Assembly: GCA_027031685.1 (NCBI GenBank)
Contig: JALVPS010000223.1
Location: 1-39,538 of the forward strand
Reading direction: 5' to 3'
Source of the DNA: Gammaproteobacteria bacterium
GTDB lineage: Bacteria; Pseudomonadota; Gammaproteobacteria; UWMA-0217
DNA length: 39,538 nt
The notes beneath the pieces were generated by a model. That model was not told where the DNA came from. It was given only the letters and a program-made list of their open reading frames with translations, and ran no database searches. Each line of letters opens with the position of its first letter. Positions within the stretch are counted from its first letter, which is position 1. Of the stretch, positions 2,107 to 37,771 are shown piece by piece. The translations under genes and the position numbers were made by a program.

Positions 2107-2200
2107 GGCCGGGCGGGGCAGGGAGGCCCCGGAGTGTCAAACAAGTTTGTCGAGCATAGGGCGGGCAGGTTGGAATTTCGATATTCAGCCGGAAAAACTG

Positions 2201-2812
2201 TTATCCAATTACCGCAGTTATGATGGCGCCAACTAAGGCGCCAAAGACAGATGTCAGGATTGGAATCAGCCATGCCCGGAGTCTGTCACGGCGAGCCCTT
2301 ATTTTTAGTTCTTCTTCGCTGCCCAACAATACGTCCATGTCTTCCAGCGCTTGTTTGGCGGCTGAGATCAACGTGTCGTGTTGTTCTATCCGGTCTTTTG
2401 TTTTCGTTCCATCGAGTTTGGATACCAATCTTTTGAGTTCTCTGAAGCGCTTGGCTATTTCTCCATAATTTTTTACGACATCGGATATTGGTATCTTGCA
2501 GAACCGCCTTCTGAATTCATTGTAGGAAGAAAGTGCTGCGATCGCGCTCGCTTCTGAAGCGTCGAGCGAGGCCCTCAAGCAATGATTGAGCGACTTGTTA
2601 AGCTCCGACTCATTAGGAGGGTTTTCATTCATCGCGCGCAACAGATGATAGCCGGCATATCGTAATTGGTTTATTGCCGGGGTGAATATGCCTAGCCCAT
2701 CTTCATGAAACCATCCTTCAAATGTCTTGATGCAGTCCTCTGCCGATTGATACTGTTCACTAATCTCTTTTATCTTTTCTTGATATCCTTGCGTATCCGT
2801 CATTTCCTGCAT
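2201..2812 (-). CDS. hypothetical helical protein with a C-terminal TM anchor (rex-like position)
   Basis: 203-aa ORF in an AT-richer island. C-terminal hydrophobic helix LIPILTSVFGALVGAIITAVIG. The alternative start ATG 2803 overlaps the upstream stop as ATGA. Confidence 0.6.
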   Translation of the reverse strand: MQEMTDTQGYQEKIKEISEQYQSAEDCIKTFEGWFHEDGLGIFTPAINQLRYAGYHLLRAMNENPPNESELNKSLNHCLRASLDASEASAIAALSSYNEFRRRFCKIPISDVVKNYGEIAKRFRELKRLVSKLDGTKTKDRIEQHDTLISAAKQALEDMDVLLGSEEELKIRARRDRLRAWLIPILTSVFGALVGAIITAVIG

Positions 2813-3051
2813 CTAGCCATATTGAAAAGGCGGCGCAGAAGCCCGCCCCTGTCATCCGTGATTACTTTTTTTCTCATCATATCAATTTCTTTTTTGCTGG
2901 TATAACGCCCCATTTGCAAGGAAATGTTCCCCTCGCTCAAGGCAGCCACAATGCTGCGTTCTGTTGGCTTGGAAAGCTTTAACTTGTTATGGCTTCTGGG
3001 CTTCATTTTGTCCAGCTGTGATGGTGGGGTCTGTGTGGCACTCTCGGACAT
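2800..3051 (-). CDS. small basic hypothetical protein (83 aa)
   Basis: Internal ATG at 3051 of ORF 2800..3180 (MSESATQTPP..). Its stop overlaps the start region of 2201..2812. No clear SD. Confidence 0.4.
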   Translation of the reverse strand: MSESATQTPPSQLDKMKPRSHNKLKLSKPTERSIVAALSEGNISLQMGRYTSKKEIDMMRKKVITDDRGGLLRRLFNMARCRK

Positions 3052-3279: not shown

Positions 3280-3942
3280 TTAGCCATGATCCTGATCCAT
3301 CTTTGACTGCTCCTCGGCCCCTTCCTCCCCCTCCAGCGCCTCCAGGAACGCCATGACGGCCTTCTGCATCTGCCGGGGCCGCTCGCGGTAGAGGGCGATC
3401 AGGCGCTGCAGCTCGGCGCTGTCGGCGGCCACCAGGGCCAGTTCCGGCGGCATGGCCAGGGCGTACACGGGCACTTCCAGGGCCTCGGCCAAGGGTTGCA
3501 GCACGTCCGCCGGCACCTGGTCCGTGCGGCCGTCGAGGATGTCGGTGATGGTCTCCACCGGCACGCCGGAGCGCTCGGCCAGCATCTGCCGCGACAGGCC
3601 GCGGTGGTTCATGAGCACCAGCAGGGCCTTGCCCCACACGTCCGCCGGGCTGCTCACCTCCAGGGTGACGGTCATGGGGGCGGGGGTGACCATCGTTTCC
3701 TCGATGGGTCCGCTCCGATCAGGGAAGTCGATGTCCATCCAGCCCCTTGGTAACCCGATGGCGCTCTCTATGTCTCGCGCCAGCTTCTCCCCGATCCGCT
3801 TCACGCCTTTCAGGCATCTGGACACGTAATCAGGCTGCCTACCAATGGCGTCGGCAAACCGCTTCTGGCTGCCGCGCTTTGGCTTGTATCGCTCCCTGAT
3901 GAGCCAAGCCATGTTCTCGCGCCTGATGTCGTAGATGTCCAT
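3280..3942 (-). CDS. CI-like phage repressor with two XRE-type HTH regions
   Basis: The ATG 3942 start (MDIYDIRRENMAWLI..) is chosen over the longer ORF. HTH-like segments QKRFADAIGRQPDYVSRCLKG and LSRQMLAERSGVPVETITDIL. Divergent from a cro-like gene. Confidence 0.8.
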   Translation of the reverse strand: MDIYDIRRENMAWLIRERYKPKRGSQKRFADAIGRQPDYVSRCLKGVKRIGEKLARDIESAIGLPRGWMDIDFPDRSGPIEETMVTPAPMTVTLEVSSPADVWGKALLVLMNHRGLSRQMLAERSGVPVETITDILDGRTDQVPADVLQPLAEALEVPVYALAMPPELALVAADSAELQRLIALYRERPRQMQKAVMAFLEALEGEEGAEEQSKMDQDHG

Positions 3943-3976
3943 GCCGCAAGTTTCCCCGCCATATACCGCCGGGTAA

Positions 3977-3992
3977 ATGCCCTGCGGGGCAT
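3977..3992. promoter_or_regulatory. candidate operator palindrome ATGCCC-TGCG-GGGCAT
   Basis: 6-bp inverted arms in the cI/cro divergent intergenic region. Confidence 0.3.
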
Positions 3993-3997
3993 GGTTG

Positions 3998-4026
3998 TTG
4001 ACCGTAATGTGACCTAGGGGTAAAGT
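3998..4026 (+). promoter_or_regulatory. candidate rightward early promoter (TTGACC-17 nt-TAAAGT)
   Basis: -35 at 3998-4003 and -10 at 4021-4026. The cro-like ATG is at 4035, so the transcript would be leaderless or nearly so. Confidence 0.35.
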
Positions 4027-4034
4027 TTCTTGGT

Positions 4035-4265
4035 ATGGAAAAGCTACGCGCATATCTGAAGACCCTTTCGCCTGATGATCAGGACGCCTTCGCCAAGCGG
4101 GTTGGCACCACCATCGGCTACCTGCGCAACGCCCTGAGCACGGGCAAGCGGCTGGGGCCGAACCTGGTCATCGCCATCGAGCGCGAGACCAACGGCGCCG
4201 TGCGCTGCGAGGATCTGCGCCCGGATGTGCCCTGGCACGTGCTGAGAGGCTCCGAGGCGGCCTGA
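4035..4265 (+). CDS. Cro / YdaS-like HTH regulator
   Basis: 76 aa, AFAKRVGTTIGYLRNALSTGKRLGPNLVIAIERETNG. Divergent from the repressor. Confidence 0.75.
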   Translation: MEKLRAYLKTLSPDDQDAFAKRVGTTIGYLRNALSTGKRLGPNLVIAIERETNGAVRCEDLRPDVPWHVLRGSEAA

Positions 4266-8141: not shown

Positions 8142-8555
8142 ATGCACAAGCCGCACGGGCTCACGCCGAAGCAGGAGGCGTTCGCGGCGGCCTACGTGGA
8201 GACGGGCAATGCCTCGGAGGCCTACCGGCGGGCCTATCCGCGCTCCGTCCGCTGGAAGGCGGAGACGGTGCACAAGCGCGCCTCGGAGCTGCTGGCGGAT
8301 GGGGACGTTATGGGTAGGGTGGAGGCCTTGCGGGCCGAGCACCGCAAGCGCCACCGGGTGACGGTGGACCGTCTCACGAACGAGGCCTGGGAGGCCATCG
8401 AGCTGGCCAAGCGGGAGGGGCAGGCGGGGGCCTATGTGTCGGCCCTGCAGCTGATCGCCAAGATGCACGGCCTGCTGGTGGACAAGCACGCGGTGAAGGC
8501 CAGCGTGGAGCACAAGGGCGTGACGCGGCTGGAGGTGGTGCTGGTCGATGCCTGA
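8142..8555 (+). CDS. terminase small subunit (P27-type)
   Basis: ATG 8142 after GGAGGGAG; LTPKQEAFAAAYVETGNASEAYRRAY. Confidence 0.8.
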   Translation: MHKPHGLTPKQEAFAAAYVETGNASEAYRRAYPRSVRWKAETVHKRASELLADGDVMGRVEALRAEHRKRHRVTVDRLTNEAWEAIELAKREGQAGAYVSALQLIAKMHGLLVDKHAVKASVEHKGVTRLEVVLVDA

Positions 8556-9798
8556 GGCGGCCCGCCAGGACGACGCCACGGCGCGGGTGATGCTGCCGCG
8601 CTGGGTGGCGCCCTTCATGCGCCCGGCGCGCTACAAGATCGCCTACGGCGGGCGCGGCAGCGGCAAGTCGGTGAGCTTCGCCCGCCTGCTGCTGATGGCC
8701 GCGGCGGAGCGCCCGCTGCGCGTGCTGTGCGCCCGCGAGCTGCAGAACAGCATCGCCGACTCGGTGCACCAGCTGCTGGCGGACCAGATCCGGGCCATGG
8801 GCCTCGACGGCTGGTTCACGGTGCGCGAGAAGGACATCCTGGGACGCGCCGGCAGCCGCTTCCTGTTCAAGGGCCTGCGCGGCACCCGCAACGACGCCAG
8901 CCAGCTCAAGAGCCTGGAGGGCGTGGACATCTGCTGGATCGAGGAGGGGCAGACCGTGTCCAAGGCCAGCCTGGACACGCTGGTGCCCACCATCCGCAAG
9001 CCCGGCTCGGAGATCTGGATCAGCTTCAACCCGGATCAGGAGACGGACCCGGTGTACCAGCTGGCCCTGAACCCGCCCGAGGGGGCCGTGGTGCGCAAGG
9101 TGAACTGGGACGAAAATCCCTGGTTCCCGCCGGAGCTGGACGCGGAGCGGCGCCACATGCTGCGCACCGACCCGGACCTGTACGCCCACGTGTGGGAGGG
9201 CGAGTGCCGGCAGGTGACGGACGCCCAGGTGCTGCGCGGCAAGTGGCGCGTGGCGGACTGTCCGGACGCCATGCCGGACATGGACGGGCCCTACTACGGG
9301 GCGGACTTCGGCTTCGCGCGCGACCCCAGCACGCTCAACCGCTGCTACATCCACGGCAACACGCTGTACATCACCCACGAGGCGCACCGCCTGGGCTGCG
9401 AGGTGGTGGACCTGCCGGCCCTGTACGACACCGTGCCGGGCAGCCGCTCGCACACCATCCGCGCCGACTCGGCCCGGCCGGAGATCATCAGCCACCTGCG
9501 CCGCGAGGGGTTCCGCGTGACCGGCGTGGACAAGTGGCCCGGCTCGGTGGAGACCGGCGTCAACGTGCTGCGCAGCTTCGACGCCATTGTCATCCACTCC
9601 CGCTGCCGGCACACCATCGAGGAGGCGCGCCGCTACAGCTACAAGGTGGACCGCCTCACGGGCGACGTGCTGCCGCAGATCGTGGACGCCTGGAACCACC
9701 ACTGGGACGCCGTGCGCTACGCCCTCGCGCCCCTCATCCGCCGCCGCATGCGCACGTCCACCGGCATCGTCGGGCGCCGCCGGAGGACCATCGCGTGA
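8548..9798 (+). CDS. terminase large subunit (PBSX / Terminase_3-like)
   Basis: Walker A-like YGGRGSGKS and ARELQNSI motifs, followed by a C-terminal nuclease half. Overlaps TerS. Confidence 0.9.
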   Translation: MPEAARQDDATARVMLPRWVAPFMRPARYKIAYGGRGSGKSVSFARLLLMAAAERPLRVLCARELQNSIADSVHQLLADQIRAMGLDGWFTVREKDILGRAGSRFLFKGLRGTRNDASQLKSLEGVDICWIEEGQTVSKASLDTLVPTIRKPGSEIWISFNPDQETDPVYQLALNPPEGAVVRKVNWDENPWFPPELDAERRHMLRTDPDLYAHVWEGECRQVTDAQVLRGKWRVADCPDAMPDMDGPYYGADFGFARDPSTLNRCYIHGNTLYITHEAHRLGCEVVDLPALYDTVPGSRSHTIRADSARPEIISHLRREGFRVTGVDKWPGSVETGVNVLRSFDAIVIHSRCRHTIEEARRYSYKVDRLTGDVLPQIVDAWNHHWDAVRYALAPLIRRRMRTSTGIVGRRRRTIA

Positions 9799-11600: not shown

Positions 11601-14114
11601 GTGGCCGAGCACCCGCCCTTCGACACCCACCGCGACGCCATCGAATGGGCCCGCGCCCGCCGCGTGGTGCTGCCCACCGAGTACTACGGCCTGCTGCAGC
11701 AGCGCGCCCGCGCCCAGGCCTTCGCCGTTGCCGGCCTGTCCGCCATCGACCAGGCCCAGCAGGTGCGCGACAGCCTCACCCGCGCCCTGGCCCGCGGCGA
11801 GACCTTCGCCGACTGGCAGGCCCGCGTCGAGCGCGGCGAGATCCCCCTCCACCTGCCGCGCCACCGCCTGGACAACATCTTCCGCACCAACCTGCAGGGC
11901 GCCTACATGGCCGGCCGCTGCCGCGCCATGCGCCGCCACGCCGAGGCGCGCCCCTACCTCATGTACTCCGCCATCAACGACAGCCGCACCCGCCCCGCGC
12001 ACCGCGCCATGCACGGCACCATCCTGCCCATCGACCACCCGTGGTGGGAGGAACATCTGCCGCCGAACGGGTTCCGGTGCTTTCTGCCCGGCACGCGCGT
12101 GCGCGGGAATTTCAGGGTGGGCCTAAAAGCCTTCTACGCGGGACGCGCCGTGGAAATAGTCACGGCGCAGGGTGCACGGCTGGCCGTCACCGCCAATCAC
12201 CCCATACTGACCCGGCAGGGCTGGGTGCGCGCGGACCAGGTCGCGGAAGGCGATGATCTTGTCCGCTATGGCGGCGAGGTCGGGGGTGCGTCTGCCGTGC
12301 CTGGGCAGGTAGACGACGAGCAGCCGCCACCCACGGTGGAAGAGGTCTTCGAGGTGCTCGCGGCGCAGCGACTTGGCCTCGCCGAGCCAGCGGCGTTCGA
12401 TCTCTACGGCGATGCGCAGTTCCTCGAAGGCGAGGTCTATGTTGCGGGTGCCGAGAGCGTACTGGTGCCGGGGGTGCGCCCCGCGTGCCCGCAGGGCGGC
12501 GAGGATGTCCAGCTCGACCGGCGAGACCATGCCCCCCACGCTGGCGCCATCGGCCTGAAAGGCCTGCACGCCGCGCGCCCTGGAGACGAGCTGCCGCCCG
12601 GAGAGGTCGAACCCGAGTTCGCGCAGACGCTTCTTGACGTAGGGCTTCGACACGCCCAGCGCATTGGCGATCTCCTGCGTCGTGTGGCCGGCCTCGAACA
12701 TCGACCCCATGGCGAAGTCGTGCCGGGCCAGTTTGCGCCCGCGGGCGGCCTCCCAGGCCTTGGCGCACTGCCTCTCGACCAGCGCCCGGTCCTGTTTGAT
12801 ACGCGCCCACTTGACCTTTTCCGCCGCGCTGCGACCGCGCACCTCCACCCCGTTGCGCAGGAGGAAGCCCTTCACGGCATTCCGGCTGACGCCGGCCGCC
12901 TCGGCGATGGCCTTGATGCTCATCCCGTCCTTGTAACTGGCGATGACGGCGGCCGGGTCCGCGGGCTGCCATCGTCTGTCCTTGACAGAGCGCGGCTCGA
13001 TACCCCGCTTGCGCAGGATGATGTGGAAGCTGCTGGTGCTGATCCCTCGCGCCTTGAGCAGATGGTGCATGACGGCGCCAGCGGTGTACTGCTCGACCAG
13101 GTAGTCGATGTCAGACGGTTCGAGTTTCGCGGCCATGTCTATGATTTCGAAACGGAAAACGGCCTGATCGTGGCCGAGGGCATCGTAACCCACAACTGTC
13201 GATGCACGGTAGTGCAACTATCCGAGGCCGAGGCCCGCCGGCGGGGTGTCACCACATCGCCGCCCGAGGCGTCACCCGATGACGGCTGGGACTACTCGGT
13301 GTGCCACCACGGCCCGGAGGAGGGCGTGGCGCGGGCGGCGGACGCGCGCGAGCGGGCCTGCGCCGATCTGGGCTTCGGGGCGCTGTTCGGGCTGCGCGGG
13401 CCGGAGGACGTGCTGGTGTGGTGCCACAACCAGCGGGTGCATGAGGCGGTTACCCGTCTGGCAGAGCGGGTGCGTGACTGGGACGACGATGAGGCCCTGG
13501 CGCGCGCGGCGCTGGGCGACGAGATCTGGGAGAAGCACTACAAGGCGGCGTCCGATCCAGAGATCACCCTCGATCTCAGTGTTCCGGAGCGGGTGGTGGT
13601 GCGCGCCTATACGGACTATCAGATCGACGTCTGGCCGCTCATGAACCGCCTGGCCCGCGAGCTGCCGCACGACCGGCGTCTGCCGGGCTTCACCGACGAG
13701 GAGCTGTTCCGGGCCGGCCTGCTGATCTACCTGATGGACCGGGCTATTGCCAAGCTGCCGACCATCGAGGACGAGTTCCGGCGCGGGGTGAAGCCGGAAG
13801 GGCTGGGCGCCCGCCGCACGGCCTACGTGAAATCGCACACGCATCGCGGGCGCATCGTCTCCTGGGAGGGCTATACTTCCATCATGGCTGGCAAGCCGTT
13901 CGAGGGCAGCATTCAGTTCATCATCGAGGCGAAACGCGCCGTGGACCTGGGGCCGCTGTCGGTGCAAAAGAAACCGGAATTGGTGCTGCCGAGAGGCACG
14001 AAGATCAGGATATTGGATTACGAGCGCTTTGACGGGTATCTGAGAATAGAAGCCGAGGAGGTGGAGCATGAAAGGCCCATCAGAGGAGAGCATCGTTTCG
14101 GCATTGAAGCGTGA
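11601..14114 (+). CDS. MuF / SPP1-gp7-type head morphogenesis protein interrupted by an intein, with an ADP-ribosyltransferase-like C-terminal domain
   Basis: GTG 11601 after GGCAGGAGG. MuF motifs SAINDSRTRPAHRAMHG and PPNGFR|CRCT, the latter split by 373 codons. C-terminal motifs YTDYQ..MNRLAR, FRRG, GYTS, PELVLPRGTKIRI. Confidence 0.8.
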   Translation: MAEHPPFDTHRDAIEWARARRVVLPTEYYGLLQQRARAQAFAVAGLSAIDQAQQVRDSLTRALARGETFADWQARVERGEIPLHLPRHRLDNIFRTNLQGAYMAGRCRAMRRHAEARPYLMYSAINDSRTRPAHRAMHGTILPIDHPWWEEHLPPNGFRCFLPGTRVRGNFRVGLKAFYAGRAVEIVTAQGARLAVTANHPILTRQGWVRADQVAEGDDLVRYGGEVGGASAVPGQVDDEQPPPTVEEVFEVLAAQRLGLAEPAAFDLYGDAQFLEGEVYVAGAESVLVPGVRPACPQGGEDVQLDRRDHAPHAGAIGLKGLHAARPGDELPPGEVEPEFAQTLLDVGLRHAQRIGDLLRRVAGLEHRPHGEVVPGQFAPAGGLPGLGALPLDQRPVLFDTRPLDLFRRAATAHLHPVAQEEALHGIPADAGRLGDGLDAHPVLVTGDDGGRVRGLPSSVLDRARLDTPLAQDDVEAAGADPSRLEQMVHDGASGVLLDQVVDVRRFEFRGHVYDFETENGLIVAEGIVTHNCRCTVVQLSEAEARRRGVTTSPPEASPDDGWDYSVCHHGPEEGVARAADARERACADLGFGALFGLRGPEDVLVWCHNQRVHEAVTRLAERVRDWDDDEALARAALGDEIWEKHYKAASDPEITLDLSVPERVVVRAYTDYQIDVWPLMNRLARELPHDRRLPGFTDEELFRAGLLIYLMDRAIAKLPTIEDEFRRGVKPEGLGARRTAYVKSHTHRGRIVSWEGYTSIMAGKPFEGSIQFIIEAKRAVDLGPLSVQKKPELVLPRGTKIRILDYERFDGYLRIEAEEVEHERPIRGEHRFGIEA
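12078..13196 (+). mobile_element. intein (Hint domain; Cys1 ... His-Asn / Cys+1)
   Basis: Block A CFLPGTRV, block B LAVTANHPILT, blocks F/G GHVYDFETENGLIVAEGIVTHN, followed by CRCT. Confidence 0.75.
12123..13136 (-). CDS. homing-endonuclease-like protein (3 HTH modules + Vsr/DUF559-like PD-(D/E)xK core), antisense inside the intein
   Basis: The - ORF has normal amino-acid composition, while the + frame opposite it looks like an antisense shadow. Motifs MSIKAIAEAAGVSRNAVKGFL, TTQEIANALGVSKPYVKKRL, NIDLAF..IAVEIERRW..GWRLLVVYL. The start is uncertain (ATG 13136, GTG 13193 or TTG 13217). Confidence 0.6.
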   Translation of the reverse strand: MAAKLEPSDIDYLVEQYTAGAVMHHLLKARGISTSSFHIILRKRGIEPRSVKDRRWQPADPAAVIASYKDGMSIKAIAEAAGVSRNAVKGFLLRNGVEVRGRSAAEKVKWARIKQDRALVERQCAKAWEAARGRKLARHDFAMGSMFEAGHTTQEIANALGVSKPYVKKRLRELGFDLSGRQLVSRARGVQAFQADGASVGGMVSPVELDILAALRARGAHPRHQYALGTRNIDLAFEELRIAVEIERRWLGEAKSLRREHLEDLFHRGWRLLVVYLPRHGRRTPDLAAIADKIIAFRDLVRAHPALPGQYGVIGGDGQPCTLRRDYFHGASRVEGF

Positions 14115-14864: not shown

Positions 14865-14896
14865 GGGTGACATTTGTCACCTGTAAAATGTCACCT
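14865..14896 (+). repeat. 32-nt element GGGTGACATTTGTCACCTGTAAAATGTCACCT, copy 1
   Basis: Identical to 35297-35328. Lies between a terminator and the protease/scaffold gene. Confidence 0.95.
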
Positions 14897-14918
14897 CCCG
14901 TGGGCCACCCTGCGGCCC

Positions 14919-15812
14919 ATGAGCAACGACGCCCTCTTCCTGAGCGCCCCCCTGGCGCTGTCTTCCGGCCGGAAGGACGGTGAGCCGCCCCGCTTCGAGG
15001 GGGTGGCCTACTCCGGCGGCCTGGTGCCCGACTATGGCGTGGTGGTCGATCTGGCCAGCGCGCGGGTGGAGGCGCCCATGCCGCTGCTGTTCGGCCACCG
15101 CCACGAGAAGGACATCGGCGTGATCGAGCGCGCCGAGGTGGCCGACAACCGCCTCACCGTGGCCGGCCAGCTGTTCGCCGGCATCGACCCGGACGCCGAC
15201 AAGGTGGTGGCCAAGGCCCGCGCCGGCGCCGCCTACCAGCTCTCCGTCGGCCTGTTCGACTTCAACGTGGAATTCGTCGGCCAGGGCAAGACCGTCACCG
15301 TCAACGGCCAGGAGTTCCAGGGCCCCGTTGAGGTGATCCGCGACGCGCACATCCGCGAGACCTCCGTCGTGGCGCTGGGCGCCGACCCCAGCACCGCCGT
15401 GACCGTGTTCGCGCGGCCCGGCCAAGCCCCATCCCCCGCATCACCACCGGAGACCCCCACCGTGAGCGACAAGACCGACACCGCGGCCCTCGAGGCCGAG
15501 AACCAGCAGCTCAAGGCCGAGCTGGAAGCCCTGCGCGGCGAGCTGGCCGCCATGCGCCAGGCCGCCCGCGAGGCGGAAGTGAAGGCCCTGTTCCAGGCCA
15601 TCGGCCGCGAGTACAGCGCCGAGGCGGCGAAGCCCTTCCTGGACCTGCCCGGCGAGGCCTTCGCCGCCGTGGCGGAGCAGATGAAGGCCCTGGCCGCCGA
15701 GCGGCCCGCCGCCGCGCCGCAGGACGACGACGACCACACCACGGACTACCGGCCCAGCACCGGCGGCGAGTCCACGCTGCTGTCCGTGATGCGCGCCCGC
15801 TACCAGAGCTGA
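14919..15812 (+). CDS. prohead protease / scaffold fusion (Mu gpI-like)
   Basis: N-terminal protease-like half (LLFGHRHEKDIGV) plus a C-terminal coiled coil (ALEAENQQLKAELEALRGELAAMRQ). Confidence 0.7.
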   Translation: MSNDALFLSAPLALSSGRKDGEPPRFEGVAYSGGLVPDYGVVVDLASARVEAPMPLLFGHRHEKDIGVIERAEVADNRLTVAGQLFAGIDPDADKVVAKARAGAAYQLSVGLFDFNVEFVGQGKTVTVNGQEFQGPVEVIRDAHIRETSVVALGADPSTAVTVFARPGQAPSPASPPETPTVSDKTDTAALEAENQQLKAELEALRGELAAMRQAAREAEVKALFQAIGREYSAEAAKPFLDLPGEAFAAVAEQMKALAAERPAAAPQDDDDHTTDYRPSTGGESTLLSVMRARYQS

Positions 15813-16210: not shown

Positions 16211-17218
16211 ATGCCCATGATCAACCCCGCCAACATCTTCAGCCTGTCCGACCTGTCGGAGGCCATCAACATCGTTCCCAACCGCTACGGGCGGCTGAAC
16301 GAGATGGGCCTGTTCCCCGTCAAGGGCCACACGGTGGACACCATCTCCATCGAGGAGAAGAACGGCGTGCTCACGCTCATCCCGTCCACCACCGACGGCG
16401 GCCCCGGCGTGGTCGGCTCGCGCGGCCGGCGCAAGCTGCGCACCTTCAAGATCCCGCAGATGGTGTTCGAGGACCACTTCTCCGCCAAGGAGCTGGCCCA
16501 CGCCCGGGCCTTCGGCAAGAACGTCAAGGAGACCGTGCAGGAGATGATGGCCGACAAGCTGGAGGGCGCCCGCTCCCGCCACGACATCACCCTGGAGTTC
16601 CTGCGCATGGGCGCGCTCAAGGGCCTGATCATCGACGGCGACGGCAGCACCGTGCTCTACGACCTGTTCGCCGAGTTCGGCATCACCAAGAAGGTGGTCA
16701 ACTTCAAGCTCGGCACCCAGGGCACCAAGGTGGCCAACCTGTGCCGCGAGGTGGTGCGCCACATCGAGGACAACCTCATGGGCGAGGTGATGACCGGCGT
16801 GCGCGCCCTGGTCTCGCCCGAGTTCTACGACGCCCTCATCACCCACCCCAACGTGGAAAAGGCCTACCTCAACTGGAGCGCGGCCCAGGACCGCATCGGC
16901 GGCGATCTGCGCAAGGGCTTCCCCTTCGGCGGCATCGTCTTCGAGGAGTACCGCGGCAAGGCCACCGACGCCAGCGGCACCGTCCACCGCTACCTGGACG
17001 AGGGCAAGGCCATCGCCTTCCCCACCGGCACGGCGCAGACCTTCCGCACCCACGTGGGGCCGGCCGACTTCAACGAGACCATCGGCCGCGTCGGCCAGCT
17101 CTACTACGCCAAGGTCACGCCCACCAGGAACGACCGCGGCTGGGACATCCACACCCAGAGCAACGTGCTGCCGCTGTGCCAGCGGCCGGGCGTGCTGGTG
17201 GAGCTGACCGCGAGCTGA
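16211..17218 (+). CDS. major capsid protein, lambda gpE family
   Basis: 335 aa with N-terminus IFSLSDLSEAINIVPNRYGRLNEMGLF, typical of the family. Confidence 0.85.
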   Translation: MPMINPANIFSLSDLSEAINIVPNRYGRLNEMGLFPVKGHTVDTISIEEKNGVLTLIPSTTDGGPGVVGSRGRRKLRTFKIPQMVFEDHFSAKELAHARAFGKNVKETVQEMMADKLEGARSRHDITLEFLRMGALKGLIIDGDGSTVLYDLFAEFGITKKVVNFKLGTQGTKVANLCREVVRHIEDNLMGEVMTGVRALVSPEFYDALITHPNVEKAYLNWSAAQDRIGGDLRKGFPFGGIVFEEYRGKATDASGTVHRYLDEGKAIAFPTGTAQTFRTHVGPADFNETIGRVGQLYYAKVTPTRNDRGWDIHTQSNVLPLCQRPGVLVELTAS

Positions 17219-22362: not shown

Positions 22363-25300
22363 ATGGCCGATCTCACCATCAAGCTCGTCATGACCGCCGA
22401 CGGCACGCGCCTCACCCGCGCCGTGGACGCCGCCGGCCGCAAGGTGGGCGAGCTGGGCGGCAAGGCGCAGCGGGCGGGCGACGAGGCCAGCCGGGGGCTG
22501 GGCAGGGCCCGCGCCGGCGTCGAGTCCATCTCCCGCCAGCTCCAGAGCGCCAGGAAGTACGTCGTCTCCTATTTCGGCGCCTTCATGGCCATCGACGCCG
22601 TGGGCACCCTGCGCCGCATGGCCGACGGCTGGCAGTCCGTGCGCGCCCAGCTCATGGTCGCCACCAAGTCGCAGGCCGATTTCGGCTTTGCGCTGGATGA
22701 GGTCTATCGCATCGCCCAGAGCACCGGGGCGGAGCTGGAGAGCACCGGCAAGCTGTACGCCCGCCTCGCCACCGCCATCCAGGAGATGGGCGGCAACGTC
22801 CAGATGGCCAGCGTGGTGACGCAGGCCATGAACGACGCCCTCAAGATCAGCAAGGCCAGCACGGCCGAGGCGGCGTCGGCGCAAATCCAGTTCTCCCAGG
22901 CCATCGCCAGCGGGGTGCTGCGCGGCGAGGAATTCAACGCCGTCAACGAGGCCGCCCCGCCGTTGATGAAGGCCCTGGCGGAGCAGCTCGGCGTCACCCG
23001 TGGCGAGCTGCGCAAGATGGCCGAGGCCGGCCAGCTCACCGCCGACGTGGTGCTGCCGGCCATCATCAAGGCGAGCGGCGACCTGCGCGAGACATCCGAG
23101 CGCATGGGCGACACGATGGCCATGAGCTGGCAGAAGGTGGTCAACGCCATGCAGCGCTGGGTGGGGGAGAAGGACGAGGCCATCGGGGCCTCGCGGGCCA
23201 TCTCCAATGCGCTCAACGCTGTGGCCAACAACTTTGGCCTGGTGGGCGACGCCGTGCTGCGCCTGTCCACCGTGGCGATGGTGGGCTACGCGCTCAAGCT
23301 GGGCAAGGCCAAGACCGCCACTCTTGGGCTGGGCGGGGCCCTGACCGGCGCCCGCGCCAAGCTGCTCCAGTTCACCGTGCAGACCACCCGCTCCATGACC
23401 GCCGTCAAGCTGATGAGCGGGGCGCTCAAGACGCTCGGCCTGGCGGCCAGGGCCGTGTTTCCGATCTTCATCGCCTACGAGATCGGCAAGTATCTGTGGG
23501 ACAACTTCGCCACGGCCCGCAAGGCCATGCGCATCACCGTCACCGCCATGAAGAACGGCGGCGAGCGGATCAAGTTTGTGTTCAAGGCCCTGGGGGCCTA
23601 CATCAAGTGGGCGTTCAAGCGGGCGTTTGACGCCATCCGCAACCACTACGCCACCCTGTTGGAGTACGTCGCCAAGGGCTTCGACCTGATCGGCGGCGAC
23701 GCGATGGCCGCCAGGCTGCGCAAGGTGGTGGACGCCATCCGCCCGGCCCGCGATGCCGGCGTCCAGCTCGGCCAGGACATCGCGGAGGCGTACACCTACA
23801 TGACCAACGCCATCGAGGCCAACAACCGCGAGCTGGCCAAGGCGCTGGAGGCGGACGAAAAGGAGTTCGCCGCCAAGGGCAAGGTCAAACGCCAGGTGGA
23901 CGCCACCAGCCTGTCCCTGGGCAAGCTGTCCAAGCAGAATCGGACCAGCGCCAAGGCGGCCCGTGAAGCCGCCAAGGCCGCCGAGGAACAGCAGCGCGCC
24001 TACCGCGACCTGCTGCGGGAGATCAACCCCCTGCAGGCCGCCTCGGACGACTACGCCGCCAAGCTGGCCATCCTGCAGAAGGAGCTGGACGCCGGCCGCA
24101 TCACCGCCAAGGAGTACGAGGAGCAGGTCTGGGCGCTGGACCAGAAGATGCTCGGCTTCGGGGACGACGCCGAGGACACGGCGGACAAGGTGGCCAAGGC
24201 CGCCGATCCGATGGCCGATGCCTGGAAGCGCGCCACGGAGCGCATCGACCAGAGCTTTGCCGATGCCTTCAAGGGCGGCTTCAAGAGCTTCAAGGACTTC
24301 GCCGGCAACATCAAGAACGCCCTGCGCGACCTGCTGGCCGAGCTGGCCTACCAGCTCGCCAAGAGCAAGTTCTTCCAGCTCCTGGGCGGCCTGAGCGGCC
24401 GGGGCGGCTTCCTGGGCGGCCTGGGCAGCCTGGTGCCCTCCGGGGCCTTCGCCGCCGGCGAGGTGGGCGGCCTGCCGGGCGGTGGCCTGCCCGGTGGCGT
24501 GCCGGGCATGAGCGGTGTACTGGGCACCCAGATCGGCGCCACCACCCTGGGCGGCACCATGCTGGCCGCCGGTGGCGGCTATCTGGTGGGCGGCTTCCTG
24601 GAGGACCGGCTGGGCGGCAACGCGCAGATCGGCACCACCCTGGGGAGCACCGCCGGGATGATTATCGGCGGGCCGCTTGGGGCCGTTGTCGGCGGCGCCC
24701 TCGGGGGCCTGGTCGGCTCCATGTTCGGCGGCAAGTGGAAGACCCGCGACAGCGGCGTGGAGCTGTCCTACAGCGGCGGCGAGCTGACAGGACAGCAGTA
24801 CGAATACCAGAAGAAGCGCAACCTGTTCGGCAGCAAGACCCGCACCCGCCACAGCGAGCTGGACAGCAAGGTGCAGGCCGCCCTCAACCAGACGTTCGAC
24901 GCCATCGAGCAGGGCGTCCAGCAGATCGCGGACAACCTGGGCAGGGACGTGCAGGACGCCATCGACAGCTTCACCGCCGAGGGCAAGATCAGCCTCAAGG
25001 GCCTGTCCAAGGAGGCCGCCCAGGCCAAGTTGCAGGAGTGGGTGAACCGCACAGGCGGGCAGCTCATGGCCGCCGTCCTGCCGGAGTTTTCCGGCATCAT
25101 CCGCGCCGCCGGCGACCGCGCCGGGGAGCTGTTGCAGCCGCTGCTGAGCCTGTCGCAGTACATCGGGGAGGACTGGGCGCCGCACGTGGCCACCACCCTG
25201 ACCGGGGCGGCCCGCCAGGCCCGTGAGGCGGTGGAGCGCCAGCTTGCCGACTACGACGGCTCCGTGGAGGCCACCCAGCGCCTGGCCCAGGCGGTGCAAG

Positions 25301-25869
25301 CCCGCTACCAGGTGGAGCAGGAGCTGCTGCGCCAGATCGGCCAGGTGCGCGAGTCCGTCAAGGGCATGACCGACGACCTGCTGGCCGACCTGGGGCGCGC
25401 CCTGCGCAGCGATCAGGAGCAGTTCGACTGGCTGACCCAGCAGCGCCTGCTGCTGCGCCAGCAGCTCGAAGCCGCCAGCGACCCCGAGGAAATCCAGCGC
25501 CTCACCGCCAAGGTGCTCAGCGTCACCCGCGAGCAGATGCAGATGATGAGCGCCGAGCAGCTCAAGGCCAACGCCGAGAACATCACGGCCTTCGTGCGGC
25601 AGGTGCGCACCATCGCGGAGGACAAGCTGCGCCAGGCCGAGGAGGTGGTCAAGACCGAGCACCAGGAGATCGCCGGGGCCACCCGCGCCACCCTGCAGTC
25701 GGCCTCCCAGAGCATCGCGGAGGCGGCCCGCAACATGAACCAGGCCGCCGCCAACCTGAACGTCGCCGCCGCCAGCATGAACAACGCGGCCGGGGCGCAC
25801 ATCCAGGCGGCCAACGTCCAGACGCAGATTCTGGCCTGGAACTGGAACGGCTATGACAGCGGGTTCTGA
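22363..25869 (+). CDS. tail tape measure protein
   Basis: 1168 aa. N-terminal motif FSQAIASGVLRGEEFNAVNEAAPPLMKALAEQLGVTRGELRKMAEAGQLT, Gly-rich TM-like middle and long coiled coils. Confidence 0.9.
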   Translation: MADLTIKLVMTADGTRLTRAVDAAGRKVGELGGKAQRAGDEASRGLGRARAGVESISRQLQSARKYVVSYFGAFMAIDAVGTLRRMADGWQSVRAQLMVATKSQADFGFALDEVYRIAQSTGAELESTGKLYARLATAIQEMGGNVQMASVVTQAMNDALKISKASTAEAASAQIQFSQAIASGVLRGEEFNAVNEAAPPLMKALAEQLGVTRGELRKMAEAGQLTADVVLPAIIKASGDLRETSERMGDTMAMSWQKVVNAMQRWVGEKDEAIGASRAISNALNAVANNFGLVGDAVLRLSTVAMVGYALKLGKAKTATLGLGGALTGARAKLLQFTVQTTRSMTAVKLMSGALKTLGLAARAVFPIFIAYEIGKYLWDNFATARKAMRITVTAMKNGGERIKFVFKALGAYIKWAFKRAFDAIRNHYATLLEYVAKGFDLIGGDAMAARLRKVVDAIRPARDAGVQLGQDIAEAYTYMTNAIEANNRELAKALEADEKEFAAKGKVKRQVDATSLSLGKLSKQNRTSAKAAREAAKAAEEQQRAYRDLLREINPLQAASDDYAAKLAILQKELDAGRITAKEYEEQVWALDQKMLGFGDDAEDTADKVAKAADPMADAWKRATERIDQSFADAFKGGFKSFKDFAGNIKNALRDLLAELAYQLAKSKFFQLLGGLSGRGGFLGGLGSLVPSGAFAAGEVGGLPGGGLPGGVPGMSGVLGTQIGATTLGGTMLAAGGGYLVGGFLEDRLGGNAQIGTTLGSTAGMIIGGPLGAVVGGALGGLVGSMFGGKWKTRDSGVELSYSGGELTGQQYEYQKKRNLFGSKTRTRHSELDSKVQAALNQTFDAIEQGVQQIADNLGRDVQDAIDSFTAEGKISLKGLSKEAAQAKLQEWVNRTGGQLMAAVLPEFSGIIRAAGDRAGELLQPLLSLSQYIGEDWAPHVATTLTGAARQAREAVERQLADYDGSVEATQRLAQAVQARYQVEQELLRQIGQVRESVKGMTDDLLADLGRALRSDQEQFDWLTQQRLLLRQQLEAASDPEEIQRLTAKVLSVTREQMQMMSAEQLKANAENITAFVRQVRTIAEDKLRQAEEVVKTEHQEIAGATRATLQSASQSIAEAARNMNQAAANLNVAAASMNNAAGAHIQAANVQTQILAWNWNGYDSGF

Positions 25870-30226: not shown

Positions 30227-33200
30227 ATGGCACTGATCGCCCGCTGGCAGTTCGACGAGGGCAGCGGCACCACGGCCGCCGGCAGCGCCGGCAGCGAGCC
30301 GGCCTGCTCGCTCATCGGCAGCGTCGGCTGGACCGCCGGCAAGTTCGGCCAGGCCATCCACGTGCCGCAGGACAGCGGCGCCCGTGGCGAGGTGGCGCAG
30401 TGGACCGGCTTCCAGAGCGCGCAGACGACGTTCTCCTACGCCGCATGGGTCAAGATGGACACCTGGACCGGCTCGCCCATCCTGGCCGTGGTGTCCGTGC
30501 CGTATGCCGCTGGCGACTGGCGGCGGGCCTTCCAGATCAGGGTGGCCCATTGGGACGGCACCATCATGGTGACGCTCTACGACGGGTCCAGCCATCAAAT
30601 CTTCGGCGGCAAGGCCATCAACGACGGTCAGTGGCACCATGTGGCCGTCACCTATGACGGCAGCACGGCGAAGCTGTACGTGGACGGCGACCCAGATGGC
30701 AGCATGGCCCTGTCGGGCTTTTCCGCGCCCTACACCGGCGAGGCCATCCAGGTGGCCGGCGACCGCAACGGCGCCAGCGACAGCCTGGCCGGCGCCCTGG
30801 ACGACCTGCGCATCTACGACCACGCCCTGAGCCAGAGCGAGATCCAGGGCCTGCTCAACCCCGTCACCGTGCTGGCCGGCGCCGATGCCACCCTGGGCCT
30901 CGACGCCACCGCCGGGGCCGTGGCCGTGCGCCACCAGCTGGCCGCCGTCTCCGCCGCCGCCGACACCACCGCCGGCGTGGGCGGGCTGGGGCAGCGCCAT
31001 GAGCTGGCCGGCCCGTCCGCCGCCGCCGACCTGACCGCCACCAGCGGCGCCCTCGTGCAGCGCCAGCGGCTCGCCGGCGCGGGCGCCACTGGCGACACCG
31101 GCGCCACCACCGGCCTGCTGCAACAGCTGCAGCGCCTGGCCGCGGCGGCCGCCGTGGCCAGCGCCCTCACCATGCCCGCCGCCGCCCTCACGCAGCGGCA
31201 CGGCCTGGCCGACGGCGCCCCCATCGTGCCCACCGCCGCCAGCGTGGCCGGTCTCGGCCAGCGGCACGAACTGGTGGGATTGGCCGCCGCCGCCGCCACC
31301 GAGGCCCCCGGCGCGGCCCTCACCCAACGGCACGCCCTGGGCGGGGCTGGCGTGGTGGTGGATGGCGCGGCCAACGGGGGCGCCCTGGGGCAGCGGCACG
31401 GGCTGGTGGGATGTGACGTCCTGGTATACAGCAACGCTGACTCGCAAGTCTGGCCGCTGACCATCGATGGGCAGACCAGCGGCGCGCAGCTTGGGTATAG
31501 ATGGATTATAGGTGACCTCATTGAGGTGCCGGACATCTCGCGCTCCTACCGGCTATCGGCCCTGTTGCGCCAGCGCACAGCGCCGGGGGCCGACCCCGAT
31601 TCCGATCCGCGCCACTATGCGGGTTTCTCCTGCTATGACGCTGATGTAAAAAGCATTTTTCCGCGTAATTTCTACATCCCAAACCCGGCCACCATGACCC
31701 GACTGGCGCAGCCGCTCGATTATGGCGACACCGAGATCGTGCTGGAGAGCACCGCCGGGTGGTCCACCGATATGCACTTCTTCTTTGCCGCCTATGGCTA
31801 CACCGACGGTCAGGGGCGCACCTATCCCGATTGGTACTACACCCGAGACCTCTTCTATTTGTTCAACCGGGCGAGCATTGACGGCAACCGCCTGGTTCTC
31901 TCCAAGCCGTGGTTGGGTCCACGCAAGCCGGCCGGCACGGCGGTGGCCAATACGCGGAATGCCAGTACCTACAACTATGTTCTGCGCGCATATAAGACGT
32001 TGCCGAGTGATTGGCGCCGATACGAGGCGCTTATCAAAGGGGAGCAGCCGTCAGTGCACGGGGTCTACTTCATCAATTTCCGCCCTGCCACACGCTTTGT
32101 ATCGCCCGTGTTGGGCGTTAATTACTGGGGCCCGCATACCATCGTCGAGTGGGACGGATGGGAGCTGGCTTCCGACGGCCCGCTCGCCCAACGCCATGGC
32201 CTGGCCGCCCCTTATGCCACCCTCGACACCGCCGCCGACCCCGGCCCGCTGGCCCAGTCCCATGCCCTGGCCGCGCCGGGGGCGGTGGCCGACCTGCAGG
32301 CGGACGCCGGCGCCATTCCCGTCCAGACCCATGTGCTGGCCCCGGCGGGGGTGTCCGCGCCCCTGCTGGCCGATGGCGGCGCGCTGGGGCAGCGCCACGG
32401 CCTGGCCGCCCTGTTCGCCGTGCTCACGGTGGCGGCGGACGGCGGCGGCGTCACGCCCACCCACGCCCTGGTGGGCGGCCCGCTCACCCTGAGCCTGGAT
32501 GCGGACACGGGCGCCCTGCGCCAGCACCAGCGCCTGGCCGGCGAGAACGCCACCATCGGCCTCTACCCCTGGCGCGAGGGGCTGGGCCAGACCCACGTGC
32601 TGGCCCCCGCGGCCCTGGCCGCCGACGGGGCGGCGGACGGCGGCCCGCTCGGCCAGCCGCTGCCGCTGGCGGGTGTCGGCGGCGAGCTGGCCACGGCCGC
32701 CGATGCCGGCCCGGCGCGGCAGGATCACGCCCTGGCCGCCACCGGCCCGACCGTGGAGGCCACCGCCACCGCCGACGGGCTGGGCCAGCGCCACGCCTTC
32801 GCCGGCGCGGGCGCCCAGGCCGGCAGCGACGCCACGGCCGGCCCCCTGGGCCAGCGCCATGCCCTGCAGGATGGCGGGGCCGTCACCACGCCCCAGGCCA
32901 CCACCGGCGCCGTCCTGCCCACCCACGTGCTGGCCCCCTGGCCCATGGTGGTGGAGACCGGCTCCCTCAATCCCGAGCTGATCGAGCACCACCTGCTGGC
33001 CGCCCTGCCGGCGGAGACGGCCACGGTGGTGCCCGGCCTGCGCCTCACCCAGCGCCACCCCCTGGCCGGGGCCGGGGCCGAGCTGCCCCTGCAGGCCGAC
33101 AGCGCCCCGCTCAGCCAGCGCCAGCGGCTCGCCGCCAGCCCGGCCGTGGTGGACACCGCGGCCGATGGGGGTGCGCTGGGGCAGGCCCACCGCCTGGCCG

Positions 33201-36685: not shown

Positions 36686-37771
36686 CTACGCCGCCGCCTT
36701 CCCGTGCGACTCCCCGCACAGCGGGCAGGGCAGCCCCTGAACCACCAGCGCCTCGCGCAACCAGTCCGGCCGCTCCGGCAGCCGCCCCTTCATCTCCTTG
36801 CGCCACCTGCGTGCCACCGCCGGCGTCCACGGCAGACCCGCGCCGATCACCTCCCGGTTGATGAACTCCCGCAGCTCCGCGCGGAAGGCCAGGAAATTGG
36901 AGAGATCCTCCCTGATCCGCTCCAGCTCCTCCTCGATCACCGGCAGGTGCGCCGTCGTCAGCTCCGCCAGCGAGCGCACCCGGCACAGCACCCGCAGCCG
37001 GTTCGCCACGTGCTCGCGCGCCCCGCCCTGGCTGCCCAGCCCGGCCACCGCCGCCGCCATCGCGTGCGCCAGCTCCTCCCGCTGCCGGAACGAAAGCGGC
37101 TCGCCACCGGCCGCCTCCGGCGCGGGCGCCGCCACGGACCGCCCGCCCTCGCCGGCCGGGATGTACTCCCCCTCCAGCACCACCTTCTCCAGCAGCTCCC
37201 CGGCCACCGCCATCGCCTGCGGAATCTGATCCGGCGTCAGCTGCTCCAGACTCTCGATACCCAGGCGCAGATTCACAATCGCATGCGCCTCGTCGTAGCC
37301 CAGCTTGCGCCCACGCGCCTCGGCCACCTTCACCACCCGGCGGATGGCCTTCACCAGCGGCTCGCGCTGCGCCTTCGTGGCGTGGGGGAGGGGCTTGGGG
37401 GGTTCCTCCGGCTGGGCTTTCTTCACCACCTGGCCGTTCCAGTAGCGCCAGAGCACCTCATCGCACTCGTCCTGGTAGCGCTCCAGCTTCTCGCGCACCT
37501 CCGGCTTGACCTTGGCCGGACTGATGGACATGAGCCAGCCGGGGAGCTTGCGCAGGGGGAGGCAGAGCATCTCGCGTTTCTTGCCGTCCTGGGCAACCGT
37601 TGGCATAAGCCAACACTTCCAACGAGGCTCCTTGAGCTTGGTGGATTGTCGTCCCCAGTCTATGCCCAGCGCGTCGCAGATCGGCCGGGCCGGGGTGTAA
37701 GGCTCGTGGTTGTGCTCGACGAGATAGAGGGTGTCGTCGTGGAAGGTGACGGGGATAAGGGATTGGTTCAT
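36686..37771 (-). CDS. phage antirepressor (P22 Ant N-terminal domain type)
   Basis: ATG 37771 after AGGAGA. LIPVTFHDDTLYLV..PICDALGIDW..LCLPLRKLPGWLMSISPAKV. Confidence 0.75.
   Translation of the reverse strand: MNQSLIPVTFHDDTLYLVEHNHEPYTPARPICDALGIDWGRQSTKLKEPRWKCWLMPTVAQDGKKREMLCLPLRKLPGWLMSISPAKVKPEVREKLERYQDECDEVLWRYWNGQVVKKAQPEEPPKPLPHATKAQREPLVKAIRRVVKVAEARGRKLGYDEAHAIVNLRLGIESLEQLTPDQIPQAMAVAGELLEKVVLEGEYIPAGEGGRSVAAPAPEAAGGEPLSFRQREELAHAMAAAVAGLGSQGGAREHVANRLRVLCRVRSLAELTTAHLPVIEEELERIREDLSNFLAFRAELREFINREVIGAGLPWTPAVARRWRKEMKGRLPERPDWLREALVVQGLPCPLCGESHGKAAA

Follow-up and report, generated by a model that had tools for sequence, protein, structure and literature searches.

Can an intein be translated without interruption through DNA whose other strand encodes the endonuclease expected to mobilise it? 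This question is raised by a phage head gene in the 39,538-nucleotide stretch of gammaproteobacterial DNA analysed here (contig JALVPS010000223.1; hereafter the window). The gene encodes a MuF/SPP1-gp7-type minor head protein and carries an insert that an earlier reading of the sequence (the original prediction) had described as an intein with a homing-endonuclease-like gene nested inside it in antisense. From sequence comparison and structure models we consider it probable, at about 0.85, that the insert is a homing-type intein of the antisense Vsr-like endonuclease kind (with the endonuclease as a −1 open reading frame, ORF), located at the PPNGxx|CRC site of the gene. The following features are used in the argument (HTH, helix-turn-helix; pLDDT, predicted local distance difference test score).

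11601..14114, + strand: precursor ORF of the MuF/SPP1-gp7-type minor head protein, intein included; 837 amino acids, GTG start
11601..12077, + strand: N-extein, MuF domain through ...HLPPNGFR; Phage_Mu_F match, aligns with intein-free homologues to PPNGF(R/M/N)
12078..13196, + strand: class-1 intein of 373 codons, Cys1 to His372-Asn373, from the boundary analysis
12078..12275, + strand: Hint N-terminal half, intein residues 1-66, with block A CFLPGT, block B VTANHPILT and WVRADQVAEGDDLV; pLDDT 89-97
12276..13079, + strand: intein linker, residues 67-334; its read-through frame runs antisense to, and codon-aligned with, the endonuclease gene
13080..13196, + strand: Hint C-terminal half, residues 335-373, blocks F/G, GHVYDFETENGLIVAEGIVTHN; pLDDT 84-98, TIGR01443 match
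13197..14114, + strand: C-extein, the +1 Cys of CRCTVVQL followed by an ADP-ribosyltransferase (ART)-toxin-like C-terminal domain, from alignment with intein-free homologues
12123..13136, − strand: antisense homing-endonuclease-like gene, 337 codons; conserved ATG 13136-13134, stop 12125-12123
13008..13118, − strand: HTH module 1, residues 34-70; helices 34-45, 50-57 and 61-70 in the model, profile match to 2LVS (E 3e-5)
12855..12956, − strand: HTH module 2, residues 88-121; Pfam HTH_23/HTH_58/HTH_7 at 89-133 (E 2e-9 to 3e-7), NF040595 Cbp1 HTH (3.7e-10)
12615..12692, − strand: HTH module 3, residues 176-201; Pfam HTH_20/HTH_24/Sigma70_r4 at 174-201 (E ~2e-6)
12303..12527, − strand: Vsr/DUF559-like PD-(D/E)xK nuclease core, residues 231-305, with E235, N259, D261, E272 and G296-W297
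12354..12356, − strand: codon CAC, His288 of the endonuclease, in a column that is Arg in 89/90 family members
12126..12254, − strand: endonuclease C-terminal tail, residues 322-364, opposite Hint blocks A-B; QYGVIGG is the complement of TANHPIL

Intein and antisense gene in the MuF ORF

The + ORF at 11601-14114 matched Pfam Phage_Mu_F at amino acids 53-160 (profile positions 1-107 of 112, E 6e-22), and also TIGR01641 (SPP1 gp7) and phrog_220. The insert lies between PPNGFR and CRC of MuF. It opens with CFLPGT, contains VTANHPILT and closes with GHVYDFETENGLIVAEGIVTHN (…GIVTHN) before CRC; the C-terminal His-Asn and the downstream +1 Cys are both present (…GIVTHN|CRC). Cys1 (codon 12078-12080), P42, H353 and N373 of the intein were invariant in alignment A5, as were T38 and H41 of block B (VTANHPILT, TxxH), the latter two in 16/16 sequences of A5 and in 70/70 non-redundant elements. 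The match to Pfam Intein_splicing (E 8e-7) scored 29.5, below the gathering score of 35.8, and TIGR01443 (intein C-terminal region) matched with 19.4 bits against a cut-off of 15.6. Deletion of residues 160-532 in silico extended the Phage_Mu_F match from profile positions 1-107 to 1-111 of 112 and raised its score from 79 to 92.6 bits. Boundaries, catalytic residues and this deletion bear out the predicted 373-codon class-1 intein with Hint blocks, and from its sequence the intein of the window looks splicing-competent.

Alignment with intein-less MuF homologues confirmed the insertion point. The site is empty in BcepMu gp30 (YPPNGWG-CRCRVV) and in P0169 to P0177, the full-length proteins nearest to the spliced product (58-43% identity, 456-479 amino acids; PPNGF(R/M/N)-CRC); the corresponding intein-free junction of the window is gaggaacatctgccgccgaacgggttccgg|tgtcgatgcacggtagtgcaactatccgag. 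A homologous intein occupies the same site in the more distant P0224 and in the cultured phages Aaphi23, 1N2-2, ES2, vB_VaM_H2 and vB_Pae_CF23a. Because the closest homologues are empty and more distant ones are filled, the distribution among exteins is sporadic, as for a mobile element.

The AlphaFold2 model of the 373-residue intein was confident only at residues 1-66 and 335-373 (pLDDT 84-98, all β), and residues 127-320 (pLDDT 25-41) were predicted to be unstructured. Its best Foldseek matches were all inteins or Hint domains (Mtu RecA, RadA, GyrA and hedgehog; probability up to 1.00, E ~1e-2), the modest E-values being due to the disorder of most of the model. An endonuclease domain in the + frame linker, a finding that would have refuted the original prediction, was looked for: the linker had no Pfam match and is predicted to be unstructured. 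We also considered an independent + frame constraint at intein residues 82-130, which was suggested by pLDDT values of 64-86 and by the near-invariant D108, G111 and D112 in A5. This was rejected, since the antisense frame was more conserved there across the 70 non-redundant elements; codon complementarity (Q-CAR/L-YTG, W-TGG/P-CCA) dictates the few + frame columns that are conserved to the same degree.

On the opposite strand, the mechanical − ORF spans 12123..13217 (364 amino acids) and extends to a TTG at 13217; the ATG at 13136 is the conserved Met of alignment A1. These predicted coordinates, the conserved Met and the 17 Lys of the − ORF were all reproduced. GC content by codon position reverses in the insert: over 12200-13100 the + frame has ∼0.9 at position 1 and ∼0.65-0.8 at position 3, the exteins have 0.9-1.0 at + frame position 3, and the frame rich in GC at its third position inside the insert is the − frame. 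The per-frame plot agreed with the composition noted before, as G/C-initial codons make up 89% of the + frame middle (12288-13082), which contains 1 Lys and no Asn or Trp.

The − ORF matched HTH families in Pfam (HTH_23, 2e-9; HTH_58; HTH_7; Sigma70_r4), in NCBIfam and in PHROGs, where the best match was 'transcriptional regulator, D5-like'. Pfam also gave a weak REase match, and its PF04480 (DUF559) profile did not match the − ORF. A profile of 12 homologues over residues ∼231-320 matched the DUF559 structure 3HRL (4.5e-4) and the I-Bth0305I catalytic domain 3R3P (1.8e-3), and the N-terminal profile matched 2LVS, a tandem-HTH protein. The AlphaFold2 model of the endonuclease had a mean pLDDT of 74 (nuclease domain 78-92), and Foldseek aligned it with Vsr (1CW0, 1VSR) and 3R3P at a probability of 0.99 and a target-normalised TM of 0.54-0.58. 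The three HTH modules and the Vsr/DUF559-like core proposed for this ORF were thus recovered by family profiles, by structure-linked profiles and by the model. This architecture is that of free-standing and intron-encoded Vsr-like homing endonucleases.

The family is large. Searching the endonuclease profile against 1.84 billion representative proteins gave 760 matches at E≤1e-30 and 2,947 at E≤1e-10; the closest relative, L007/P0001, is 50% identical. Exact-peptide scans with the window endonuclease over genome contigs and viral contigs found no close relatives. The family has long forms, with an extra N-terminal HTH, and short forms. Within A1 the HTH module 3 insert occurs only in the window, L007, L012 and P0002; as an internal insert at residues ∼160-205 (12615-12750 on the − strand; A1 columns ∼201-250) it is exclusive to the clade of the window (window, L007, L012, P0002, L014/L015).

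Substitution patterns separate the two frames. Between the window and L007/P0001, exteins and Hint blocks vary most at + frame position 3, and over 12474-13073 the most variable position is + frame position 1, which is − frame position 3; amino acid identity over the latter interval is 0.20-0.30 in the + frame and 0.50 in the − frame. Column entropies across the 70 non-redundant elements showed the intein frame to be more conserved at intein residues ∼11-60 and ∼351-373, and the endonuclease frame from residue ∼81 to ∼350. These comparisons indicate that the − ORF is a real gene whose frame is under purifying selection in the middle of the intein.

Could the − ORF instead be a shadow of GC-rich coding, with the true, divergent endonuclease or linker domain lying in the + frame? 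Fully open aligned-antisense frames are common in the window, which is what such a reading needs. However, the significant HTH and nuclease matches are in the − frame and none is in the + frame, the − frame model is confident against a pLDDT of 25-41 for the + frame middle, the substitution and entropy patterns favour the − frame, and homologous antisense ORFs of 286-338 amino acids exist in phages of 42-51% GC, where chance shadows cannot arise. On domain matches, models, substitution and entropy patterns and low-GC relatives we rejected this reading, which we find scarcely credible.

Gene callers treat the locus unevenly. In L011 (3767-5827) and several short metagenomic contigs (L007-L012) the antisense endonuclease is called and the MuF-intein ORF is not; in cultured phages MuF is called and the endonuclease is not, and public annotation never shows both genes together. 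Because callers see only one of the two genes, the endonuclease family is systematically under-annotated.

Probable dual coding and the interlock of the two genes

Within the window the open + frame says little, as had been cautioned from the beginning. The − ORF has no TTA, CTA or TCA codon, as predicted, and the intein frame is read straight through it. These codons make up only 0.1% of codons in window genes, however, giving a probability of ≈0.70 of no stop in 337 codons, and elsewhere in the window the aligned-antisense frame is fully open along entire genes of 300-1169 codons. The open + frame was therefore rejected as evidence.

Relatives from other genomes were more informative. In tblastn searches with the − ORF, homologues were found only antisense to continuous MuF or minor-head coding sequences, in phages of Gordonia, Aggregatibacter/Haemophilus, Idiomarinaceae, Cronobacter, Vibrio and Pseudomonas. 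In Aaphi23, 1N2-2, vB_VaM_H2 and ES2, phages of 43-53% GC, neither frame has a stop for 240-340 codons. The antisense genes of these four have no TTA, CTA or TCA, against 2-4.6% in neighbouring genes; the amino-acid-conditioned probability of this absence is 3.5e-7 for Aaphi23, 5e-7 for 1N2-2, 1.3e-8 for vB_VaM_H2 and 1.4e-3 for ES2.

A further sample comprised 80 IMG/VR loci with GC contents of 0.37-0.73. Openness of the frames was not a selection criterion for these loci; the sample includes near-duplicates, and the tail motif, which is the complement of intein block B, served as one of the two search patterns. The host frame was open across the entire endonuclease region in 80/80 loci, and the endonuclease was a single intact open stretch in 77/80 (two were split and one was cut by the contig end). 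Summed over the sample, TTA, CTA and TCA occurred 0 times against ∼304 expected, which amounts to conserved avoidance of these codons. Among 90 related loci the host frame was single and uninterrupted in all, phages of 37-47% GC included, and the register was the codon-aligned (−1) one in 89; the remaining locus, L001, has a mis-framed end coordinate and its register was not recomputed. Shown comparatively, and far beyond chance on these codon counts, both frames appear to be kept open by selection.

The genetic code offers a rationale for the register. When the two strands are codon-aligned, TTA, CTA and TCA are the only codons of one frame that put a stop into the other, and since all three have synonyms, open frames cost no amino acid. 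The universal use of this register would follow from the code, because only there do stops correspond to single codons of the opposite strand.

The classifiable host genes were of the MuF family: 27 match Phage_Mu_F, 1 Phage_min_cap2 and 4 VG15, with the motifs RAxxIARTE…D…R..H in the consensus. Four of 61 N-exteins in alignment A4, together with P0167, match Pfam PF25310 (VG15) instead of Phage_Mu_F; these hosts may form a divergent MuF-like family, or else intein and antisense endonuclease have a second host gene. In L050 (506-775 / 779-1390) and L079 (2278-2478 / 2351-2857) the antisense endonuclease gene is in two pieces and the MuF-intein frame is open. These two endonucleases look like decaying copies heading to a mini-intein.

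The same comparisons bear on whether the MuF gene of the window is dead, that is, whether a reverse-oriented mobile endonuclease gene broke an old intein, the + frame being open by chance and no functional full-length MuF being made. Although a chance-open + frame has a probability of ∼0.7 in this window, N-extein, both Hint halves and C-extein stand in one frame with every catalytic residue intact, and the C-extein is conserved with intein-free homologues over 300 amino acids. Read-through is kept in 90/90 related loci, including those in low-GC genomes, and one continuous MuF coding sequence is annotated in the cultured, viable phages Aaphi23, Vivi2, ES2 and vB_VaM_H2. A dead gene, which we hold to be very unlikely, was rejected on the intact frame and catalytic residues, the conserved C-extein and the read-through in relatives.

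The two genes also share motifs at their ends. Near the N-terminal end of the intein, WVRADQVAEGDDLV lies opposite AAIADKIIAFRDLV at 12222-12275; at the other end the Hint C-terminal block overlaps the start of the − gene. The original prediction had noticed both overlaps, and they hold. Block B, T-x-N-H-P-x-x-T, has as its complement the conserved C-terminal endonuclease motif (Q/H)YGVIRG, and there the intein frame is the constrained one. Block F of the intein (H-V-Y-D/N-L/F…) begins with a His codon whose reverse complement is the conserved endonuclease start. Block F could be located by a regular expression in 47 of the 70 non-redundant loci, and the counts of start codons and Shine-Dalgarno (SD) sequences cover those 47. 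The codon opposite the block-F His was ATG in 38 and GTG in 9, in frame and open into the endonuclease gene in all 47. An SD of at least 4 nucleotides, of GGAGG type and ∼8 nucleotides upstream, occurred in 37 of them and is the complement of the (D/N)-L-Q codons. As ATG and GGAGG SD complement block F (H-V-Y-D/N-L-Q) and the tail complements block B, the splicing active site and translation initiation on the opposite strand would share essential nucleotides. In the window, block F reads D-F-E; its complement, ttcgaaatc, provides no good SD, only a weak one. The SD is likewise missing in the whole clade of the window (L007, L012, L014), where the ORFs are intact.

A terminator-like hairpin, CGGCC…GGCCG followed by TTTTCCGTTT, lies at 13176-13160 on the − strand, directly 5′ of the endonuclease ATG at 13136, perhaps by chance; there are 2 such sites in the region against 0.4 expected.

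State of this endonuclease copy and its phage context

How, then, would the element work? The late operon on the + strand would be translated through the entire 373-codon insert. The Hint halves (1-66 and 335-373), kept apart by ∼270 unstructured read-through residues, would associate, and class-1 splicing by Cys1, the block-B Thr and His, the His-Asn and the +1 Cys would remove the intein to leave an intact MuF of 464 amino acids, as sequence and models suggest. The opposite strand of the linker would encode the separate 337-amino acid protein with three HTH modules and a Vsr/DUF559-like nuclease domain. This endonuclease would be expected to cut intein-free MuF alleles, and repair would copy in intein and endonuclease gene together. 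In this way the endonuclease would mobilise the intein.

Several observations weigh against this reading. Since the open + frame of the window is expected by chance, selection for read-through is inferred from relatives; and because the IMG/VR search pattern complements block B, proportions of nested and free-standing endonucleases from that sample are biased. R288H of the window endonuclease is unique in the family. The column equivalent to the catalytic His has His in 49/90 relatives, Trp in the window and no His in its whole clade. The GGAGG SD is missing from the window gene, a σ70-type promoter scan of the − strand for the antisense gene found none (an uninformative result for a GC-rich host), and the gene lies head-on inside the late operon. 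The ∼270-residue disordered insert between the Hint halves might also slow splicing.

Some of these points fit an alternative that accepts the architecture but takes the endonuclease of this copy for a decaying passenger: splicing continues, the intein passes vertically with the prophage, and the antisense ORF, silent or inactive, is yet to acquire stops. The His where 89/90 relatives have Arg, the absence of the GGAGG SD found in 37/47 relatives, and of any promoter-like site, are as expected under it; at 69% GC an ORF of this length stays open long by chance, L050 and L079 provide split, decaying copies, and vertical-looking inheritance of several VSR groups is noted in a preprint (bioRxiv 10.1101/2025.01.02.630785). 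The window ORF, however, is full length without a frameshift and keeps E235, N259, D261, E272, G296 and W297, of which E235, D261 and E272 are the equivalents of I-Bth0305I E170, D196 and E206. L007, L012 and L014, also without an SD, have intact ORFs at only 45-50% identity, implying long-term purifying selection, and the nearest extein relatives are intein-free, suggesting a relatively recent acquisition. We regard the decaying passenger as possible, with the odds against it. The window endonuclease may be decaying or weakened, given R288H and the weak SD, and the chance that this copy is inactive seems roughly one in three.

Under a further alternative, homing is not the role of the antisense protein, or has ceased to be its only one, and the protein, as a domesticated DNA-binding regulator, or its antisense transcript modulates expression of the late operon or of MuF. 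Three HTH modules, a best PHROG match to a D5-like transcriptional regulator, the poor conservation of the catalytic His and last Asp of EDxHD, and the head-on position within the late operon would all suit a regulator. Yet the acidic metal-binding residues and the Vsr-like fold are conserved family-wide, and the gene occurs only inside the intein, at a single insertion site and sporadically among exteins, which is the signature of a selfish homing element. A regulator is thus unlikely, and an antisense homing endonuclease remains our preferred reading.

More broadly, with nearly even odds, the intein with an antisense Vsr-like homing endonuclease gene may be widespread and possibly the predominant MuF/SPP1-gp7 intein in phages of Proteobacteria, Actinobacteria and uncultured hosts, persisting as an obligate overlapping pair; head-on placement would possibly limit the endonuclease to the time before late transcription.

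At 69% GC, the window corresponds to the late/structural module of a temperate phage or prophage of siphovirus type, with all structural genes on the + strand. Its other main genes are the following.

3280-4053, − strand: repressor-like gene
8548-9798, + strand: large terminase
ends at 11596, + strand: portal
11601-14114, + strand: MuF gene with intein, between the portal and the protease/major head genes
14874-15812, + strand: protease/scaffold
16211-17218, + strand: major head protein
22363-25869, + strand: tape measure
after the tape measure, + strand: J-like tail protein
30227-35302, + strand, after the J-like tail protein: ORF of a 1691-amino acid virion protein
36686-37807, − strand: anti-repressor

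The C-extein at 13500-14111 (+) resembles an ADP-ribosyltransferase toxin domain fused to MuF, with the motifs FRRGV, YTSIM and KKPELVLPRGT. PF01129 and/or PF03496 are matched by the full-length intein-free homologues P0177, P0182, P0194, P0215 and P0217, and the first Glu of the E-P-E (ExE) motif is replaced by Lys in the window and in P0169. The C-terminal domain of the window MuF itself had no match in Pfam or in a PDB sequence search, and the ART assignment is based only on the precomputed Pfam matches of the homologues and on the motifs. In the 1691-amino acid virion protein ORF, a long array of degenerate Ala-rich repeats of ∼25 amino acids (…GALVQxHxLAG…) at 32800-35100 (+) coincides with a GC peak of 0.80-0.81. 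A low-GC island at 2200-3000 (0.44-0.50 against 0.69 for the window) adjoins the repressor-like gene at 3280-4053(−) and may be a foreign insert or a regulatory region.

Comparison with known systems

The original prediction knew of no intein with this layout. There are precedents, however: inteins with antisense LAGLIDADG genes date from 1998 and 2002, and MuF inteins with a VSR −1 ORF are described in a 2025 preprint. The latter are the closest known system. According to the text of that preprint (Gosselin, Arsenault & Gogarten, bioRxiv 10.1101/2025.01.02.630785, version of October 2025), 63/784 actinophage inteins have non-canonical endonucleases, only non-canonical types invade minor capsid proteins, the in-frame middle forms no recognisable structure, and the VSR-like endonuclease matches 3R3P by HHpred. 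Its supplementary table lists Gordonia phages Vivi2 gp14, Angelicage gp15, Affeca gp15 and Fosterous gp12 as 'minor capsid, MuF-like, class 1, VSR −1 ORF', and the Vivi2 target-site consensus is given as GTGATCAAC|TGCCGGTGC (…ATCAAC|TGCCGGTGC…).

In tblastn the window − ORF matched Vivi2, Fosterous, Affeca and Angelicage antisense to the MuF coding sequence (26-28% identity, 85-90% coverage, E 3e-12 to 5e-11). As far as the preprint describes these inteins, the window shares with them a MuF-family host protein, the insertion …N|CRC, a class-1 intein, and a homologous antisense endonuclease in the −1 register between the splicing blocks of a contiguous intein; both have an in-frame middle that is unstructured in models and an endonuclease linked to 3R3P. 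It differs in being a siphovirus-type prophage of 69% GC with proteobacterial and metagenomic, not actinophage, extein relatives, and in the third HTH insert and R288H of its endonuclease. By sequence homology the window element is a non-actinophage member of the published class, the layout is not new, and the value of the element is confirmatory and not one of discovery. Four points were not found in the text of the preprint, whose figures may hold them: that the element occurs beyond actinophages (in Aaphi23, a phage sequenced long ago, and in Pseudomonas, Vibrio, Cronobacter and Idiomarinaceae phages), how strongly stop codons are avoided in numbers, that the −1 register is universal and how the genetic code would explain this, and that the complement of block F contains the endonuclease start codon and SD.

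The antisense LAGLIDADG genes lie within inteins of Synechocystis DnaX and a Chloroflexus SpoVR-like protein (Gorbalenya 1998; Gogarten et al. 2002, as cited in the preprint). As cited there, they resemble the window in having a contiguous intein with the endonuclease on the opposite strand of its own middle; unlike them, the window nuclease is Vsr-like, and host genes and organisms differ. Antisense homing endonuclease genes are also known in group I introns, e.g. the nuclear ribosomal DNA L2066 introns (PMC9548176). These too are self-splicing elements with the endonuclease gene on the opposite strand, but they are spliced as RNA and need no dual coding, whereas in the window both strands must stay translatable over ∼1 kb.

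For the nuclease, the reference is I-Bth0305I, with which the EDxHD family was named (motif E170, D196, H213, D222; Taylor et al. 2011, PMC3239194; PDB 3R3P). Both proteins appear to be bipartite, with an N-terminal DNA-binding part (three HTH modules in the window) and a C-terminal Vsr-like catalytic domain, both are phage-borne and tied to self-splicing elements, and the equivalents of Glu170, Asp196 and Glu206 are conserved in the window as E235, D261 and E272. I-Bth0305I, in contrast, is encoded in the sense orientation in a group I intron. The window protein lacks the equivalents of His213 and Asp222, and the similarity is marginal (profile E 1.8e-3). The final Asp of EDxHD (column 285) is nowhere conserved in the family (R/H/L), and of the DUF559-type core D…E…(D)xxR…L…GW the window protein keeps D261, E272, L292 and G296-W297 but has His in the Arg column. 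By its catalytic residues the window nuclease appears to be Vsr/DUF559-like and not a canonical EDxHD member.

Possible tools include Hint halves that would tolerate an unstructured insert of ∼270 residues, and a large untapped pool of putative Vsr-like site-specific nucleases targeting a conserved phage gene. The element would also be a clean, long case of antisense dual coding in bacterial viruses, with ∼1 kb for two proteins, one frame of which is only kept open and the other of which specifies a folded enzyme.

The last comparison concerns how such a pair may arise. In the 'fractured genes' of Dassa et al. 2009 (PMC2677866), a free-standing Vsr-like or GIY-YIG endonuclease gene lies between the halves of a split intein. 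As in the window, a Vsr-like endonuclease, equipped with a start, a stop and expression signals of its own, takes the endonuclease place of an intein, mainly in phages, with coding regions that overlap part of the intein. There, however, host gene and intein are in two trans-splicing ORFs with the endonuclease drawn as a separate gene between them, whereas the window, like all related loci, has a single uninterrupted ORF (of 837 codons in the window), and its endonuclease is antisense and fully overlapping. Antisense nesting would thus be an alternative outcome of invasion by a free-standing endonuclease, beside the split-intein route of the fractured genes, and it supports the view of intein evolution in which the splicing domain came first and the endonuclease invaded later.

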